A model generated the notes under the pieces. The model had not been told where the DNA came from. It searched no databases and was given only the letters and a program-made list of their open reading frames with translations. 38,728 nt of DNA. Origin: a virus. Its lineage: Duplodnaviria > Heunggongvirae > Uroviricota > Caudoviricetes. The position numbers were made by a program, and so were the translations under genes. Below are positions 22,688 through 28,965 of this stretch, one piece after another (positions within the stretch are counted from its first letter, which is position 1; every line of letters begins with the position of its first letter). The stretch lies in the IMG/VR virus record IMGVR_UViG_648231705_000004; one strand, given 5' to 3'.

Positions 22688-22938
22688 TGAAAGAATACCG
22701 CTATTCCGGCCCGGCCAGCGGCGTCACGCTGTCGGACGGAACCGAAATCCTGCTCTGGCCGGGGAAGACGGTTTCCCTGCCGGAGGAGCATGACTACGTG
22801 AAGGTACTGGTGGCGCTGAAGCATCTGACGCCGGAACCAGAAGATACTAAACCCGCCGTCACACCGGCTGTGCAGTCACCAAAGCGCAGAAGCAGCAGTG
22901 ACAGCGAAGTGAAAACGGAGGACGCCCATGGCAGCTAA
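22687..22938 (+). CDS. small tail-completion protein (83 aa)
   Basis: ORF 22684..22938; ATG 22687 with GAGGA RBS; precedes sheath gene. Confidence 0.5.
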   Translation: MKEYRYSGPASGVTLSDGTEILLWPGKTVSLPEEHDYVKVLVALKHLTPEPEDTKPAVTPAVQSPKRRSSSDSEVKTEDAHGS

Positions 22939-24355
22939 CTATCTGCATGGTCCCGAAACCATTGAGGTGGAAAACGGAGCCCGCCCGGTTAAAACGGTGA
23001 AATCTGCCGTTATTGGCCTGATTGGTACCGCCCCGATGGGGGATGTCAATACGCTGGTACAGTGCCTGTCTGAGAAAGACGCAGCGGCATTTGGCAGCCA
23101 GTTCACCGGCTTTACCATTCCGCAGGCGCTGGATGCGATTTATGACCATGGTGCAGGCACCGTTCTGGTCATTAACGTCCTCGACCCGGCGAAACATAAA
23201 ACGGCGATCGAGGATGAGGTGGTTACCTTTGACAAATCGACAGGGCAGGCCAGACTGGCGCATCCGGTTGTCGCTAATGTGGTGGTGAAAAACAGTGAAG
23301 GCAGCACCACCCACACGGCGAACACGGACTACCGTGTTGATGCGCAGGCGGGTGTGCTCACGAACCTGGGCAAGGCTATTGAGGCCGGTGGCAGCGTGAA
23401 GGTGAGCTATGAGTACGCGGACCCGTCGAAGGTGACTGCGGCGGACATCATCGGCGGGGTGAACAGCGCCGGAAACCGAACCGGCATGAAGCTGCTTAAC
23501 GACAGCTTCAACCTGTACGGCTATTTCGCCAAAATTCTGATTGCGCCGGTGTTCTGCACCCAGAAGAGTGTCGCAGTTGAGCTTATCGCCATGGCAGAGA
23601 AGCTGGGCGCGATAACCTACATTGATGCGCCTGTCGGTACCACCTTTGCACAGGCTCTGGCAGGTCGTGGCCCGGAAGGCACCATCAACTTCAATACCAG
23701 CTCCGACCGCGTCCGTCTGTGCTATCCGCATGTGAAGGTATATGACCCGGTGACAAACACAGAGCGTCTGGAGCCGCTCAGCCAGCGTGCAGCAGGTCTG
23801 CGTGCCAGAGTCGATCTGGACAAGGGCTACTGGTGGTCATCCTCCAATCAGGAGATTCTGGGGATCACCGGCGTGGAGCGCCAGCTGTCCGCGATGATTG
23901 ATGACCCGCAGAGTGAGGTGAACCTGCTTAACGAACAGGGGATCACCACGGTATTCAGCAGTTACGGCAGCGGCCTTCGTCTGTGGGGTAACCGGACGGC
24001 AGCATGGCCAACGGTCACCCATATGCGTAACTTTGAGAACGTTCGCCGCACCGGTGATGTGATCAACGAGTCCATTCGTTATTTCAGCCAGCAGTACATC
24101 GACATGCCGATTACTCAGGCGCTGATTGATGCACTGACGGAGTCGGTCAACGCCTACGGTCGCAAAATGACTGGTGATGGTGCGGTACTGGGCTTCCGTT
24201 GCTGGTTTGATCCGGCCCGCAATCCGGAGACGGAGCTGGCCGCCGGGCACCTGTTGCTGAGCTACAAATATACGCCACCACCGCCGCTGGAGCGACTGAC
24301 GTTTGAGACTGAGATCACCTCGGAATACCTGTTAACCCTGAAAGGGGGCAACTGA
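22928..24355 (+). CDS. contractile tail sheath protein (Mu L-like)
   Basis: 475 aa; GGAGG RBS; sheath-tube-chaperone-tape measure order. Confidence 0.9.
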   Translation: MAANYLHGPETIEVENGARPVKTVKSAVIGLIGTAPMGDVNTLVQCLSEKDAAAFGSQFTGFTIPQALDAIYDHGAGTVLVINVLDPAKHKTAIEDEVVTFDKSTGQARLAHPVVANVVVKNSEGSTTHTANTDYRVDAQAGVLTNLGKAIEAGGSVKVSYEYADPSKVTAADIIGGVNSAGNRTGMKLLNDSFNLYGYFAKILIAPVFCTQKSVAVELIAMAEKLGAITYIDAPVGTTFAQALAGRGPEGTINFNTSSDRVRLCYPHVKVYDPVTNTERLEPLSQRAAGLRARVDLDKGYWWSSSNQEILGITGVERQLSAMIDDPQSEVNLLNEQGITTVFSSYGSGLRLWGNRTAAWPTVTHMRNFENVRRTGDVINESIRYFSQQYIDMPITQALIDALTESVNAYGRKMTGDGAVLGFRCWFDPARNPETELAAGHLLLSYKYTPPPPLERLTFETEITSEYLLTLKGGN

Positions 24356-24876
24356 TGTCAAAGATTGAGATAAACCGCATCACGAATGCCAACATCTATC
24401 TGGATGGTACTAACCTGCTGGGACGGGCTGAGGAAGTCAAACTCCCCGATGTCTCCATGATTATGCAGGAACACAAGGCGCTGGGGATGGTGGGTAAGGT
24501 GGAACTCCCGGCTGGTTTTGACAAGCTGGAAGGCGAAATCAAATGGAACAGCTTTTACCGCGATGCGATGCTGTCTGCCGCGAACCCGTACAGGTCGCTG
24601 GCACTGCAGTGTCGTTCCAGCGTCCAGCGCTACAGCTCGCAGGGGCTGATTGACGAAATCCCGCTGGTCACCTTCCTGACGATTATGTTCAAGAAGAACC
24701 CGCTGGGGACGTTCAAACAGCACGAGAACGCCGAGTTCTCCAGTAGCTTCACCTGCACGTATATCAGACAGGTACTGGATGGTGAAGAGCTGCTGCAACT
24801 GGACTATCTGGCCAACATCTTCCGGGTCGGCGGTGTTGATCAACTGACTGACTACCGTATCAATATCGGGGGCTGA
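24355..24876 (+). CDS. tail tube protein (Mu M-like)
   Basis: 173 aa; ATG overlaps sheath stop. Confidence 0.85.
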   Translation: MSKIEINRITNANIYLDGTNLLGRAEEVKLPDVSMIMQEHKALGMVGKVELPAGFDKLEGEIKWNSFYRDAMLSAANPYRSLALQCRSSVQRYSSQGLIDEIPLVTFLTIMFKKNPLGTFKQHENAEFSSSFTCTYIRQVLDGEELLQLDYLANIFRVGGVDQLTDYRINIGG

Positions 24877-24878
24877 CG

Positions 24879-25160
24879 GTGAGTGTTGAACTGACGGATA
24901 AAGGAGGACGATGTGCGGCACTGGGCATGTCAAATGGTACGTGGTTTACCCTCCTTGATATTCCGGGGGTGGAAACCCTTTTTAATACCCGTAAAACCAA
25001 TGACCCGATTGACTGCACACGTTCAAAGGCCCGCAAACTGGCGGATTTGATTGAAGCATGGGAGCCTCCCGACCACTGGTTCTCCGGCATCGGCAAATCT
25101 GAGGGAAAGACGCTTCTCATCGCTTTCCTGCGTAACTGCAAGGGGTTTCGCACTTGCTGA
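24879..25160 (+). CDS. hypothetical protein (93 aa; non-ATG start, possible internal ATG at 24927)
   Basis: ORF between tube gene and a terminator-like hairpin; no recognisable motif. Confidence 0.35.
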   Translation: MSVELTDKGGRCAALGMSNGTWFTLLDIPGVETLFNTRKTNDPIDCTRSKARKLADLIEAWEPPDHWFSGIGKSEGKTLLIAFLRNCKGFRTC

Positions 25161-25167
25161 CATCACA

Positions 25168-25190
25168 GGGGCTCCGGCCCCTTCTTCTTA
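25168..25190 (+). terminator. short GC hairpin + T-rich tract (weak terminator) preceding a probable internal late promoter
   Basis: GGGGC tccg GCCCC followed by TTCTTCTT; next gene starts at 25258 with its own RBS. Confidence 0.35.
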
Positions 25191-25257: not shown

Positions 25258-25593
25258 ATGTCACAGACCCCATCCGATACTTTTAAATTGTCTTATCCCT
25301 TCACCACTGCTGCAGGCACCAGAATTGAGCTGGTTGAACTGAAACGCCTGACGGTAAAAGACCTGAAGCAGGTGCGCAAAATCAGCAAAAACCCGGCAGA
25401 CTGGGACGAACCGCTGATTGCCCGCAGTACTGGTCTTCTCCCGGAAGATCTCGACAATATGGATCTGGCTGATTACCTGCAGTTACAGAAACGATTTCAG
25501 CTCATCACGGGGATGGGTGAGAGCAACCAGGGCGCTGACGCAGGCGCAGGGGCTGCTGGCGAGATGGTTCCGGTTTCAGCCGGGGGAGATTGA
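25258..25593 (+). CDS. tail assembly chaperone (upstream frame of a probable frameshifted pair)
   Basis: 111 aa; AGGAG RBS; sits between tube and tape-measure genes; Gly/Ala-rich C-terminus ending in a G5 run before the stop. Confidence 0.65.
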   Translation: MSQTPSDTFKLSYPFTTAAGTRIELVELKRLTVKDLKQVRKISKNPADWDEPLIARSTGLLPEDLDNMDLADYLQLQKRFQLITGMGESNQGADAGAGAAGEMVPVSAGGD

Positions 25594-25675
25594 TGCCCTC
25601 GATACTGACGATCTGGAGATGTGGCTGGAGCAGGCTGAAGAGCAAATCAAAAGCGAGTACGGCGACAAATCATAG
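25418..25675 (+). CDS. +1-frame extension of tail assembly chaperone (probable frameshift product C-terminus)
   Basis: Frame-2 ORF overlapping end of 25258..25593; only its last ~30 codons (EIDALDTDDLEMWLEQAEEQIKSEYGDKS) look protein-like. Confidence 0.4.
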   Translation: MPAVLVFSRKISTIWIWLITCSYRNDFSSSRGWVRATRALTQAQGLLARWFRFQPGEIDALDTDDLEMWLEQAEEQIKSEYGDKS

Positions 25676-25750
25676 TACAGACAGCCGCCAGTAGCGGCTG
25701 TTCTGCGTTATCCCCTCACGTCTTTTCACCTTCCCCGGAGGTTAACCACT

Positions 25751-26158
25751 ATGTCGGGACAGTTTTCAGTCGGCGTTGTTATCGGCGGGATGATTGGCAG
25801 CACATTCCGTTCTGCAATGAGCGGTACCCGCCGTGCGCTTGATTCCCTGAGCGATACCTCACGCCGCCTGCAGGAACGTCAGAACGCTTTAACCCGTGCA
25901 ACAGAACGTTATGGTCAACTGGGTTCTTCCCGGATGCAGCATCTCAACAGCGAGCTGCTGCGGGTAAGCCGCACCATGGAGCAAATTGAGCGCCAGCAGC
26001 GCCGTCTGTCAGCGGCATCCGCTACCAGTGATGCGCTGAGAAAGCTAACCGCATGGCGCTGTATGGTCAGGGGATTGAAGCGTATGGCATGGCACAGACT
26101 GTTTATCATACGGTTTCCCCTGCCGTTCAGCAGTCCATGTCTTTTCAGGACAAAATGA
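25751..26158 (+). CDS. tail tape measure protein, N-terminal segment (frame differs from the main ORF)
   Basis: Strong RBS GGAGG before ATG 25751; typical TMP N-terminus; frame switches to that of 26053..28965 between ~26032 and 26060. Confidence 0.5.
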   Translation: MSGQFSVGVVIGGMIGSTFRSAMSGTRRALDSLSDTSRRLQERQNALTRATERYGQLGSSRMQHLNSELLRVSRTMEQIERQQRRLSAASATSDALRKLTAWRCMVRGLKRMAWHRLFIIRFPLPFSSPCLFRTK

Positions 26159-28965
26159 TTGATATGTCGATCACCGCAAAATATGACAATAAAACGCGGG
26201 ATGCACTTGCCGGACAGATAAAAGGCTGGGCGCTTAAATACAATCAGTATCAGGATGAGCTGCAGGAGGCGGTGGGTTCACTCATCAGCGACAATATTGA
26301 TAATGTGTCAGATATCGGTTTTCTGATGCCGGATATTGCCCGCGCGGCAACGGCAACACGCACGTCTGCTCAGGACTGGGCAAAAGTGGCCGCAGTCTGG
26401 CAAAACTCCCTGAAAGGTGCGGCCAGAGATTTTGGTGCCGTTCAGAATATTATGGCTTATGCCGGTGACCAGGGGTCATTTGAAATCCCGGATCAGGTCA
26501 AGTGGATGCAGTCCCTGGCCCCAATGATGGCGGGTCTTGCCAGTGGAAAAGAGGCTGTTGCTGAAATCGGGGCCAGTCTCCAGATAGCAAAAATCGGTGC
26601 AGGTTCCACCGACGAAGCAGCCAATAATTTTAAAAACTTTCTTACCAAAATTTTTGCCCGCGATACTCAGAAACAGTTTGCTGATCTGGGTATTGATTTG
26701 CAGGGATCTATTGCGAGTTATAAAGCTGCGGGGATCTCTCCGATTGAAGGGATGTTGAGTGTTATAGAACGTTACCTCAATGCCAAAAGCCCCGAAGCGC
26801 TGGCCGGCTTCAAATCAGCCATGAAAATAAAGAATGATACGGCAAGAGATGAGGCACTTCAGGCTCTGGCGAAAAACTTTGGTCTGGGCGATATGTTCGC
26901 GGATATGCAGGTCATGGCATTTATCCGCCCGATGCTGGCCAACATGGACAGATATCGAGAGATCCGTGCCGGTGCTCTCAGGGCTGCGGATAACGATTTG
27001 CTTGCCAGTGCTTATGATCAGCGGCTGAAATCTCCCCTTGAAGCCACTAAAACACTTATGGTCAGCAGTCGCGATCTGGCAATTACGCTGGGCGATCAAT
27101 TAGCTCCATCTTTTATTTCTCTGACTCAGGAACTGCTCCCACTCATTCAGGGGACAAAACACTGGGTAGCGACTCACCCGCAATTTGTCAGTGGGGCTTT
27201 TAAGCTCATCAGTGCGCTCCTTGCGATTAAGATAGCGACTATTGGTCTCAAACTGGGGCTGAATCTCCTTATTTCCCCCTTTGTGAACGTCTGGAAAACT
27301 ACTGTTTTACTCCGGACCAACTGGCATCGACTGACTACCGCACTCGGAGAAGGTGGCAAATTACGCTGGCTTGTCACTGGATTCAGCCGACTGACCAGCG
27401 GAGGACTGAAACTCAGCAAAGTTCTGGCGGGCAGCCTCGTTCGCGGTTTTATGAGCGCTGCACGTGCCGTTCTCTGGATTGGGCGAGCGCTGATGATGAA
27501 TCCCATCGGTCTCGTTATCACCGCTGTCGCGACAGCAGCTTACCTTATCTACCGCAACTGGGGGGCTGTCAGTGGTTGGTTTAAACAGCGCTGGGCTGAC
27601 ATTCAGGAAGCCTTTAACGGCGGCATTGTGGGAATTGGTAAGTTGCTGATTAACTGGTCGCCGGCAGGCCTGCTCTATAAAGCCTTTGCGGCTGCGCTGA
27701 AATATTTCGGCGTTGCTCTGCCGGCAAAGTTCACCGACTTCGGTGGCCATCTTATCGACGGTCTGATTAACGGTATCAAAAGCAAATGGGGGTCGCTCAA
27801 ATCCAGTGTAACCGGAATGGGTGACAGCATCAGTAGCTGGTTTAAACAGCGCTGGGCTGACATTCAGGAAGCCTTTAACGGCGGCATTGTGGGAATTGGT
27901 AAGTTGCTGATTAACTGGTCGCCGGCAGGCCTGCTCTATAAAGCCTTTGCGGCTGCGCTGAAATATTTCGGCGTTGCTCTGCCGGCAAAGTTCACCGACT
28001 TCGGTGGCCATCTTATCGACGGTCTGATTAACGGTATCAAAAACAAATGGGGGTCGCTCAAATCCAGTGTAACCGGAATGGGTGACAGCATCAGTAGCTG
28101 GTTTAAACAGTGCTGGGCTGACATTCAGGAAGCCTTTAACGGCGGTATCGCGGGAACTGGTAAGCTGCTGATTAACTGGTCGCCGGCAGGTCTGCTCTAT
28201 AAAGCCTTTGCAGCTGCGCTGAAATATCTTGGTGTTGATCTGCCGGCAAAGTTCACCGACTTCGGTGGCCATCTTGTCGACGGTCTGATTAACGGTATCA
28301 AAAACAAATGGGAGTCGCTCAAATCCAGTGTAACCGGAATGGGCGACAGCATCAGTGGCTGGTTCAGCGAAAAGCTGGGCATTCATTCGCCGAGCCGCGT
28401 GTTTATGGGCTTTGGTGACAATATCGCGCAGGGGGCCGCCATTGGCCTGCAGCGGACCACTCCGCTTGCAGCTCTGGCCGGGCAGCGAATGGCCAGTGAA
28501 CTGCTCCCCAGAATGCCCGTGAGCATTCAGGGGCCAGAAATACGGGATAACACTTCAGGTGTTCGCTTCAGTATGCCGTTGCCCGATATCAATGGGTTTA
28601 TGTCGTCTGCTAAAAATGCGATCGGAGCCGTAATCAATAGTTTGTCTTCCATGCCCGCTATCCCGCTCTCCACCCGGGCATCGATTTTACCAGGGCAACG
28701 TCTGGCAAATGAGATGACACCGGATGTTCCCCGTATCCCCTCGCCTGAAATCATGGCTGCCGGATATTCAGGCCGTGGTGCAGCTGCAACCGGCGGTGGA
28801 ACGTCTGGTGGTATCCAGGTCAGCTTTAATCCTCAGTTTTTCCTCAATGGCAGGGAAACCACAGCGCCTGCAGGACTGACTGGTGCCCTGAATATGAGTC
28901 TGCATGAGCTGGAAAAAATGCTGGAGCGTCTGCTGGCTCAGAAACAACGTAAGGAGTACCGCTGA
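26053..28965 (+). CDS. tail tape measure protein (main body, 970 aa)
   Basis: Long helix-rich ORF between chaperone and baseplate genes; contains three tandem 87-aa repeats. Confidence 0.85.
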   Translation: MALYGQGIEAYGMAQTVYHTVSPAVQQSMSFQDKMIDMSITAKYDNKTRDALAGQIKGWALKYNQYQDELQEAVGSLISDNIDNVSDIGFLMPDIARAATATRTSAQDWAKVAAVWQNSLKGAARDFGAVQNIMAYAGDQGSFEIPDQVKWMQSLAPMMAGLASGKEAVAEIGASLQIAKIGAGSTDEAANNFKNFLTKIFARDTQKQFADLGIDLQGSIASYKAAGISPIEGMLSVIERYLNAKSPEALAGFKSAMKIKNDTARDEALQALAKNFGLGDMFADMQVMAFIRPMLANMDRYREIRAGALRAADNDLLASAYDQRLKSPLEATKTLMVSSRDLAITLGDQLAPSFISLTQELLPLIQGTKHWVATHPQFVSGAFKLISALLAIKIATIGLKLGLNLLISPFVNVWKTTVLLRTNWHRLTTALGEGGKLRWLVTGFSRLTSGGLKLSKVLAGSLVRGFMSAARAVLWIGRALMMNPIGLVITAVATAAYLIYRNWGAVSGWFKQRWADIQEAFNGGIVGIGKLLINWSPAGLLYKAFAAALKYFGVALPAKFTDFGGHLIDGLINGIKSKWGSLKSSVTGMGDSISSWFKQRWADIQEAFNGGIVGIGKLLINWSPAGLLYKAFAAALKYFGVALPAKFTDFGGHLIDGLINGIKNKWGSLKSSVTGMGDSISSWFKQCWADIQEAFNGGIAGTGKLLINWSPAGLLYKAFAAALKYLGVDLPAKFTDFGGHLVDGLINGIKNKWESLKSSVTGMGDSISGWFSEKLGIHSPSRVFMGFGDNIAQGAAIGLQRTTPLAALAGQRMASELLPRMPVSIQGPEIRDNTSGVRFSMPLPDINGFMSSAKNAIGAVINSLSSMPAIPLSTRASILPGQRLANEMTPDVPRIPSPEIMAAGYSGRGAAATGGGTSGGIQVSFNPQFFLNGRETTAPAGLTGALNMSLHELEKMLERLLAQKQRKEYR
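27577..28359. repeat. 3 x 261-bp near-identical in-frame tandem repeats inside tape measure gene
   Basis: Unit begins TGGTTTAAACAGCGCTGGGCTGACATTCAGGAAGCC at 27577, 27838 and 28099; encodes SWFKQRWADIQEAFNGGIVGIGKLLINWSPAGLLYKAFAAALKYFGVALPAKFTDFGGHLIDGLINGIK... Confidence 0.9.

Follow-up and report, generated by a model that had tools for sequence, protein, structure and literature searches.

A 38,728-nucleotide (nt) stretch of DNA from a virus of the class Caudoviricetes (IMG/VR record IMGVR_UViG_648231705_000004; hereafter, the window) includes the P2-type tail gene module of a BcepMu-like prophage. Within this module, a 111 amino acid (aa) open reading frame (ORF) for an E-like tail assembly chaperone (plus strand, 25258–25593) is overlapped by a second ORF in the +1 frame, and the locus is best explained as a tail assembly chaperone pair of the E/E+E' type known from phage P2. 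It is very likely that the two ORFs are joined by a programmed +1 frameshift upstream of position 25514. Comparison of related loci points to the tetranucleotide UUU_C at 25495–25498 (plus strand), composed of the Phe80 codon TTT and the first base of the following codon, as the probable shift site. An original prediction, made from the sequence of the window alone, had instead placed the slip about 90 bases further 3', on a run of five G residues (G5) at 25582–25586 on the same strand.

The chaperone ORF is read in frame 1 of the window, referred to here as the zero frame. The sequence agrees with the original prediction in the limits of this ORF, in its ending GCC GGG GGA GAT TGA and in the location of the G5 run. 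Residues 8–81 of the product match the Pfam family PF10109 (Phage_TAC_7; chaperones E, 41 and 14) with an E-value of 5.5e-21 and 74.8 bits, against a gathering cut-off of 25, and the gene sits between those for the tube and the tape measure, as expected for a member of a frameshift-coupled chaperone pair. By this match and position the ORF is identified as a tail assembly chaperone, as had been predicted. The functional chaperone domain runs to about F80/Q81, and the Gly/Ala-rich tail of the chaperone (residues ~86–111) is an off-frame reading of E'. Frameshifted chaperone pairs are near-universal in long-tailed phages, so that the existence of one in the window is in itself ordinary.

The overlapping ORF is open in frame 2, +1 relative to the chaperone, from 25418 to a TAG stop codon at 25673–25675. 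At whatever point of the overlap the frame is changed, the fusion would be 138 aa long by a +1 shift and 139 aa long by a -2 shift. Reading in the +1 frame after the proposed slip yields an E'-like extension of 58 codons and the stop codon (25499–25675, plus strand; SSSRGWVRATRALTQAQGLLARWFRFQPGEIDALDTDDLEMWLEQAEEQIKSEYGDKS). The extension matches phrog_8286, listed in PHROGs as of unknown function, with an E-value of 3e-34. Alignment by hhalign of a profile of the +1-frame peptide, built from relatives, with P2 E' gave a probability of 94% and an E-value of 1.5e-7, with the aligned region corresponding to 25538–25645. The core of the GpE-like domain (LLARWFRFQPGEIDALDTDDLEMWLEQAEEQIK; 25556–25654, plus strand) lies on both sides of the G5 run, and the corresponding Pfam match (PF06528, Phage_P2_GpE) covers residues 100–132 of the fusion with 18.4 bits, below the gathering cut-off of 23. 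No matches were returned from NCBIfam for the fusion or for E', nor from a sequence search of the PDB with the fusion.

Relatives were gathered as 111 loci from species-representative genomes and IMG/VR, followed by 79 more distant loci. The comparisons cover 72 unique enteric sequences, 39 non-redundant enteric relatives (for entropy by codon position) and 150 unique loci of the +1 type. In 204 of 211 related loci, spread over Enterobacterales, Burkholderia (BcepMu gp41/gp42), Pseudomonas and Ralstonia, an E'-type ORF stands in the frame +1 to the chaperone. Together with the homology to P2 E', which depends on a frameshift, this supports the frameshift of the original prediction and its +1 direction. 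The E' peptide is kept even in relatives with chaperones of ~50% identity, and the motif ..W..QAQGLLARWFRFQP[GS]EI.. is near-invariant among them. E' is found in the -1 frame in a Pasteurella phage, which has the heptamer A_AAG_GGA at the end of its chaperone gene, and in a few IMG/VR loci.

Public annotation treats E' as a small protein with its own initiation (RefSeq; phrog_8286 in PHROGs; BcepMu gp42), which would make a frameshift unnecessary. In a relative of 88% identity, RefSeq names the +1 ORF 'GpE family phage tail protein' (45 aa), a separate gene starting MQAQGLLARWFRFQPGEID. In-frame ATG codons are present in two relatives (L002 and L003; MQAQGLL..), BcepMu gp42 begins at ATG, and the window offers a GTG at 25517 after a G-rich stretch. 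However, at the position where RefSeq starts the gene with ATG in relatives, the window has ACG, and other relatives have codons for Ile, Thr or Trp; neither a conserved start codon nor a conserved Shine-Dalgarno sequence accompanies the second ORF. The +1 frame is, moreover, constrained 5' of these candidate starts. Its first strongly constrained codon is a Trp codon, TGG, at 25514–25516 (plus strand), and conservation of this Trp reaches at least 90% across a 13-sequence E' alignment that includes the BcepMu, Pseudomonas and Ralstonia members. The homologous E' of P2 is made only as a fusion (PMC3931495). We regard a separately initiated E' as quite improbable.

The position at which selection passes from one frame to the other was located from the variability of the 39 non-redundant relatives. 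Through codon 85, entropy peaks at zero-frame codon position 3; over codon 86 (25513) and onwards as far as the E' stop, the peak lies at zero-frame position 1, equivalent to +1-frame position 3. The zero-frame codon overlapping the +1 Trp is always NTG followed by G, with entropies of 1.84/0/0 at the three positions of codon 86. Summed over 25513–25581, entropies per zero-frame position amount to 19.4/11.8/9.8, and differing codon pairs among relatives in this segment are synonymous in 45% of cases in the +1 frame versus 13% in the chaperone frame. The alternatives GTT CCG GTT and GTT TAG ATT, for example, both encode F-R-F in the +1 frame, whereas the second introduces a stop codon into the chaperone frame. 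The +1-frame peptide (..W..LLARWFRFQPGEID..) is conserved from 25514 onwards and is homologous to P2 E' from 25538, that is, 5' of the G5 run. Since the +1 frame is under selection upstream of the G5 run, +1 translation must begin well upstream of it.

These observations bear directly on the proposal that tRNA-Gly slips by +1 (or -2) on the G5 run just before the stop codon, with only EIDALDTDDL... contributed from the +1 frame. In the window the run does stand in the open zero frame, two codons ahead of TGA, and the verified -2 shift of phage Mu also takes place on a G5 run, CGG GGG C. Among the 72 unique enteric relatives, however, G5 lies within the open chaperone frame in only 20; it stands behind a zero-frame stop (..GEVV*) in 30, and in the remaining 22 is shortened to G4 or less or is missing. 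Relatives of the FQPSE form have no G run. The run is thereby absent or out of reach in 52 of the 72 relatives, and it lies inside the E' (GpE) domain, which does not fit a G-run shift of the Mu type. A product of slippage at G5 would be without the conserved W..LLARWFRFQP half of E', the part homologous to P2 E', and selection acts on the +1 frame over the 69 nt upstream of the run. Nor does the +1 frame become protein-like only at the G5 run, as had been suggested: its 5' part is the most conserved of the overlap, and the 29 aa encoded after the run match nothing in Pfam on their own. Runs of at least five G residues number 29 on the plus strand of the window. By these comparisons, the G5 run reads as incidental, a product of the +1 codons CCG GGG GAG (Pro-Gly-Glu) in the GpE/E' motif, and a slip there is highly unlikely.

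The zero-frame stop varies in position, and falls at five different places among the 72 unique enteric sequences (..GESN*, ..GEVV*, ..SAE*/..SAG*, ..AGGD*/N* and one read-through). In one relative of ~88% identity (L003) the chaperone frame ends at a TAG 12 nt 5' of the G run (GAG GTG GTT TAG ATT TCA GCC GGG GGA). In loci L061 and L062 and protein cluster P0026, at least 98% identical to the window, a change of CAG to TAG at the equivalent of 25528–25530 cuts the chaperone to 90 aa (..GMGESN*) and leaves the +1 frame untouched; 914 contigs are reported to carry P0026.

Several database proteins of 138 aa (P0007–P0011, P0023, P0060, P0113 and P0116) are ready-made chaperone-E' fusions that arise through 1-nt insertions or deletions. 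The affected G runs differ (G5, CAGGGCG or further 5'), and most of the proteins derive from read-archive assemblies. Some (P0007–P0011) are fused exactly at G5, which would accord with slippage there; these fit 1-nt homopolymer insertions or deletions in assemblies. The 138-aa entries are probably homopolymer errors or mutants, but they show that gene callers occasionally output the fused form.

The allowed slip interval is bounded on its 5' side by the last stop of the +1 frame and on its 3' side by the first stop of the zero frame. The +1 frame opens only 2–6 codons before Leu76 in several relatives, and in Komp_PAO1_1, a Pseudomonas phage, the final stop of this frame (TGA) stands 3 codons before the TTT. 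On the other side, the zero frame is closed 9 codons after the TTT in L124 and L128 (RFQSFAGLAA*) and 5 codons after it in L200. Mapped onto the window, the interval extends roughly over 25483–25513. Within it, an in-frame TTT_C is present in 143 of the 150 unique +1-type loci, BcepMu included, as against AAA in 113 and GGG in 95, and TTT_C is the sole slippery element common to the family within the interval.

Conservation at this site is at the level of nucleotides. The Phe80 codon is TTT in all 72 unique enteric relatives and TTC in none, and elsewhere in these genes Phe codons are near parity (119 TTT versus 138 TTC). The base after the TTT is always C in the enteric relatives, though the residue may be Q, R, H or L. 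The preceding Arg79 codon (25492–25494, plus strand) is CGA in 37 of the 39 non-redundant enteric relatives and also in Ralstonia phage YO107_2, although CGA makes up a minority of the Arg codons in the tail genes of this phage (10 of 100) and the codon of the invariant Arg30 is free among CGC, CGT, CGG and CGA. More generally, the invariant residues Arg30, Asp50, Asp64, Asp72 and Tyr73 vary synonymously, whereas CGA-TTT-CAG is frozen. Beyond the enteric relatives, TTT_C is found in the contexts TCC TTT CGC (BcepMu gp41), GTG TTT CGG (Pseudomonas members) and CGA TTT CTG (a Ralstonia phage), and as TGG TTT CGC or TTT TTT CGT in other loci. A zero-frame UUU followed by a pyrimidine, as found here, corresponds to UUU_Ynn, a tetranucleotide recognised as prone to +1 shifts in bacteria; the Yersinia YopN-TyeA fusion apparently arises at such a site, and the site of influenza A PA-X is UCC_UUU_CGU (PMC5009743).

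Separately, GAGGUG, a perfect complement of the anti-Shine-Dalgarno sequence, stands directly 5' of the UUU in many Pseudomonas-type members (L150–L161 among others; L133 around position 830). This element is confined to the Pseudomonas subclade and is not present in the window; it is reminiscent of the Shine-Dalgarno-like element that stimulates the +1 shift in prfB.

Two other slips within the allowed interval were considered. In the first, tRNA-Lys would move from AAA (25489–25491) to AAC while the ribosome awaits the rare CGA at 25492–25494, a 'hungry codon' shift. The near-invariance of this minority codon would be accounted for, and AAA_C occurs in 90 of the 150 loci. The Lys78 codon, however, is freely swapped (CGT, AAC, GAC, ACC, GAG, CAA or AAG) in relatives that keep the +1 arrangement, re-pairing from AAA to AAC is poor, and neither AAA nor CGA stands at this place in the BcepMu and Pseudomonas members; we give this mechanism very little credence.

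In the second, tRNA-Gly would slip from GGG to GGA at GGG_A (25510–25513), with TGG as the next codon and a 138-aa product with the junction ..RFQLITG-WVRAT... Variability changes frame exactly between codon 85 (GGG) and codon 86, which fits this mechanism, and in the enteric relatives GGG is the codon most often seen at that place, despite being a minor Gly codon in general. The preference for GGG is equally accounted for by the Gly-Trp codons of the +1 frame. The codon is GGC, GGA or AGC in seven loci (L023, L025, L029, L032, L033, L035 and L125) in which the +1 frame is intact, the base that follows may be any of the four, and no Gly codon is found at the equivalent place in the BcepMu, Pseudomonas and Ralstonia members; in-frame GGG occurs within the interval in only 95 of the 150 loci. 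A slip at GGG_A appears unlikely; it keeps a small share of the probability for the enteric lineage taken alone, and is not conserved beyond it. The G4 run at GCA GGG GCT (25547–25552) was also tried as a +1 site and rejected: relatives have GGG CCT, GGG TCT, GGG ACT or GGC GCT, and the run lies downstream of the constrained +1 Trp.

For a slip exactly at UUU_C, its efficiency and the roles of the two products, we infer the following course. Most ribosomes would translate the 111-aa chaperone to its stop codon at 25591–25593. In a minority, the P-site tRNA-Phe would re-pair from UUU (25495–25497) to UUC (25496–25498), a movement of +1, after which reading would continue from AGC at 25499 to the TAG at 25673–25675. 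The product would be a 138-aa E+E'-like fusion composed of chaperone residues 1–80 and a 58-aa E'-like domain (SSSRGWVRAT...GDKS). If the pair works as in lambda (G/GT) and P2 (E/E+E'), the N-terminal part common to both products would bind the tape measure protein, and recruitment of tube protein would fall to the E' part, with a low shift rate setting the ratio of chaperone to fusion. The CGA codon, which would occupy the E site during the slip, may contribute there or by pausing, although this role is conjectural.

Several observations weigh against this account of the site. No experimentally detected product was found on record for this phage or any relative. The A-site codon after the UUU is CAG, which is not rare; the window has no Shine-Dalgarno-like element upstream of UUU_C; and no downstream RNA stimulator was found, with an alifold energy of -4.2 kcal/mol, no covarying pairs and a single-sequence z-score of -0.6. 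The window thus presents neither a slow A-site codon nor another stimulator of the kind associated with UUU_Y sites, and any shift would have to rely on the intrinsic slipperiness of a bare UUU_C and on a modest required efficiency. In one Pseudomonas-type subclade, which counts six unique loci and includes L163, L164, L166, L175, L176, L181, L184 and L202, TTG takes the place of TTT in the sequence GAG GTG TTG CGG GAA ATG with no obvious substitute site; E' is still in the +1 frame there, and +1 stops stand merely 4–5 codons upstream. Part of the synonymous conservation of CGA and TTT could in principle stem from +1 coding, if the shift took place a few codons further upstream, and the zero-frame-like variability through codons 81–85 also fits a slip at GGG_A. 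Finally, the tape-measure gene of the window is broken, as described below, and its chaperone system may no longer be in use.

The UUU_C shift is best modelled as the +1 counterpart of the P2 E/E+E' (-1) and Mu gp41 (-2) shifts. P2 E+E' is annotated as a -1 frameshift product at T_TTT_TTG (PMC3091744). Like the chaperone of the window, P2 gpE belongs to the PF10109 family, is encoded between the tube (FII) and tape-measure (T) genes and is associated with a homologous E' domain. In both cases the shift falls where the chaperone domain ends on its C-terminal side (Phe84 of P2 corresponds to about position 77 of the model, and Phe80 of the window to about 74, as do BcepMu gp41 Phe74 and Komp_PAO1_1 Phe78), the site includes a TTT codon for Phe, and the distance from the shift to the FxWxPxE motif is about 25 residues. 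The two differ in that the P2 shift is -1 on a T6G heptamer and experimentally shown, whereas for the window we infer +1 on UUU_C, and in that E' of P2 overlaps gene T, whereas E' of the window ends 75 nt before the start of the tape measure.

Mu gp41 is likewise a tail chaperone encoded ahead of the tape measure, with an extension in the same relative frame (+1 being equivalent to -2), a G5 run, and a -2 shift that has been verified at CGG GGG C (Xu, Hendrix & Duda 2004, PMID 15469818). Its match to PF10109 is marginal (24.7 bits versus a cut-off of 25), and no similarity of the Mu extension to GpE was seen in a comparison by eye only. The G5 run, which is the verified site in Mu, is in the window not conserved and inside the E' domain. 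In BcepMu (GenBank AY539836), gp41 is a PF10109 chaperone and gp42, in the +1 frame, has a GpE-like motif, as in the window; the sequence TCC TTT CGC at the end of the chaperone domain resembles the UCC_UUU_CGU of PA-X, and the linker from the slip site to GpE is ~20 aa longer than in the window. The GenBank record sets ribosomal slippage between gp42 and gp43 (-1) and leaves gp41 separate (L134, 4603–5364). Our reading of the sequence differs from the record in that gp41 would be joined to gp42 by a +1 shift.

Comparable UUU_Y sites (E. coli UUU_Ynn, YopN-TyeA and PA-X) share with the window an in-frame UUU followed by a pyrimidine, on which tRNA-Phe re-pairs with UUC or UUU. Such sites work at a low level without elaborate stimulators (PMC5009743); they have been demonstrated by protein analysis, and PA-X has a rare A-site codon, whereas the window has CAG. 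Lambda gpG/gpGT resembles the proposal for the window in having two forms with a common N terminus, encoded before the tape measure, with their ratio set by a low-frequency shift (PMC5009743), but differs in showing no sequence similarity, in its -1 shift on G_GGA_AAG and in belonging to a siphovirus tail. Shifts of -1, -2 and +1 are all on record for the chaperone genes of tailed phages (PMC5009743). The paper on phage KS10 reports no detectable frameshift site in that phage, and no described +1 shift in BcepMu-like chaperones was found in an open-access library, a search that did not extend to the original BcepMu paper.

The tail module of the window is arranged in the order sheath (22928–24355), tube (24355–24876; Pfam PF04985), a 93-aa DUF7739/phrog_1239 gene (24879–25160), the chaperone with E', and the tape measure (25751–28965; PF10145), and homologues of gpU, gpX and gpD are also present. 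A terminator-like GC-rich hairpin with a T-rich tail is seen at 25167–25182, in the middle of the tail operon, between the 93-aa gene and the chaperone. A second hairpin, CAGCCGC-cagta-GCGGCTG with a 7-bp stem, was read from the sequence at 25682–25700 (plus strand), just 3' of the E' stop and within the gap ahead of the tape-measure start at 25751. Its stem is kept in relatives L002 and L003, where the loop differs, and it was not scored as a terminator by a terminator scan.

Escherichia phage PhiKM, classified in Bcepmuvirus, shares 99.9% identity with the region, which places the window in the same genus-level group as BcepMu. The region was detected in 640 of 5426 complete E. coli genomes (~12%); carriers of the prophage family include ST131 and IAI39. 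In a short megablast aimed at the early-stop (..GESN*) variant in complete E. coli genomes, 559 genomes carried the exact 50-mer of the window, a count that, with the required word of 28 nt, does not separate out the variant.

The tape-measure gene of the window is interrupted by a 2-nt insertion, GA, at 26038–26039 (GCGCTGAGAAAGC, versus GCGCTGAAAGC in 26 relatives), which breaks it into ORFs at 25751–26158 and 26053–28965. The insertion is absent from the 26 fetched relatives, and of the 589 complete E. coli genomes that match, strain 83972 (NZ_CP058220) alone has it, so that the window probably derives from that strain. A -1 shift would be needed to restore the frame, and the inserted bases give rise to AGA AAG, with an A_AAG motif. 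From this lesion, the copy of the prophage in the window is probably defective, and the chaperone signal is inherited from functional relatives such as PhiKM. Inside the tape measure, three tandem units of 261 nt (87 aa), 96% identical to each other, occupy 27569–28364. The length of the tape measure differs in relatives (NZ_CP029747 encodes 1070 aa, and the gene of CP155528 has 2466 nt), which suggests copy-number variation and hence variation in tail length.

Across these systems, homologous chaperones gain E'-type extensions by -1, -2 or +1 shifts at the end of the chaperone domain. The +1 variant on UUU_C within the P2 E/E' family appears to be undescribed and is widely mis-annotated. Generalized to the BcepMu-like clade (Enterobacterales, Burkholderia, Pseudomonas and Ralstonia; ~150 distinct loci), the proposal is that a P2-type E+E' is made by a stimulator-free +1 shift on UUU_C, within ~3 residues of the position of the P2-like -1 shift on T6G; we put the chances of this broader claim at about even. 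If it is true, shifts of opposite direction in sister lineages are supported by a single ancestral T-run where the chaperone domain ends, and annotation overlooks the fusion, with E' entered as a separate gene, left uncalled (as in the lineage of the window) or, in BcepMu, wrongly partnered.

The case illustrates that comparative data can place a +1 site that has no heptamer signature, here by correcting the site first proposed. It concerns a large and medically common prophage family in which the E/E' pair is split or omitted by public annotation, and joining the chaperone to E' would mend many calls of 'hypothetical' or 'unknown function' (phrog_8286). The homologous chaperones, with -1, -2 and +1 shifts at nearly one place, form a natural series that would be useful for following the evolution of shift direction and the tuning of a bare UUU_C.

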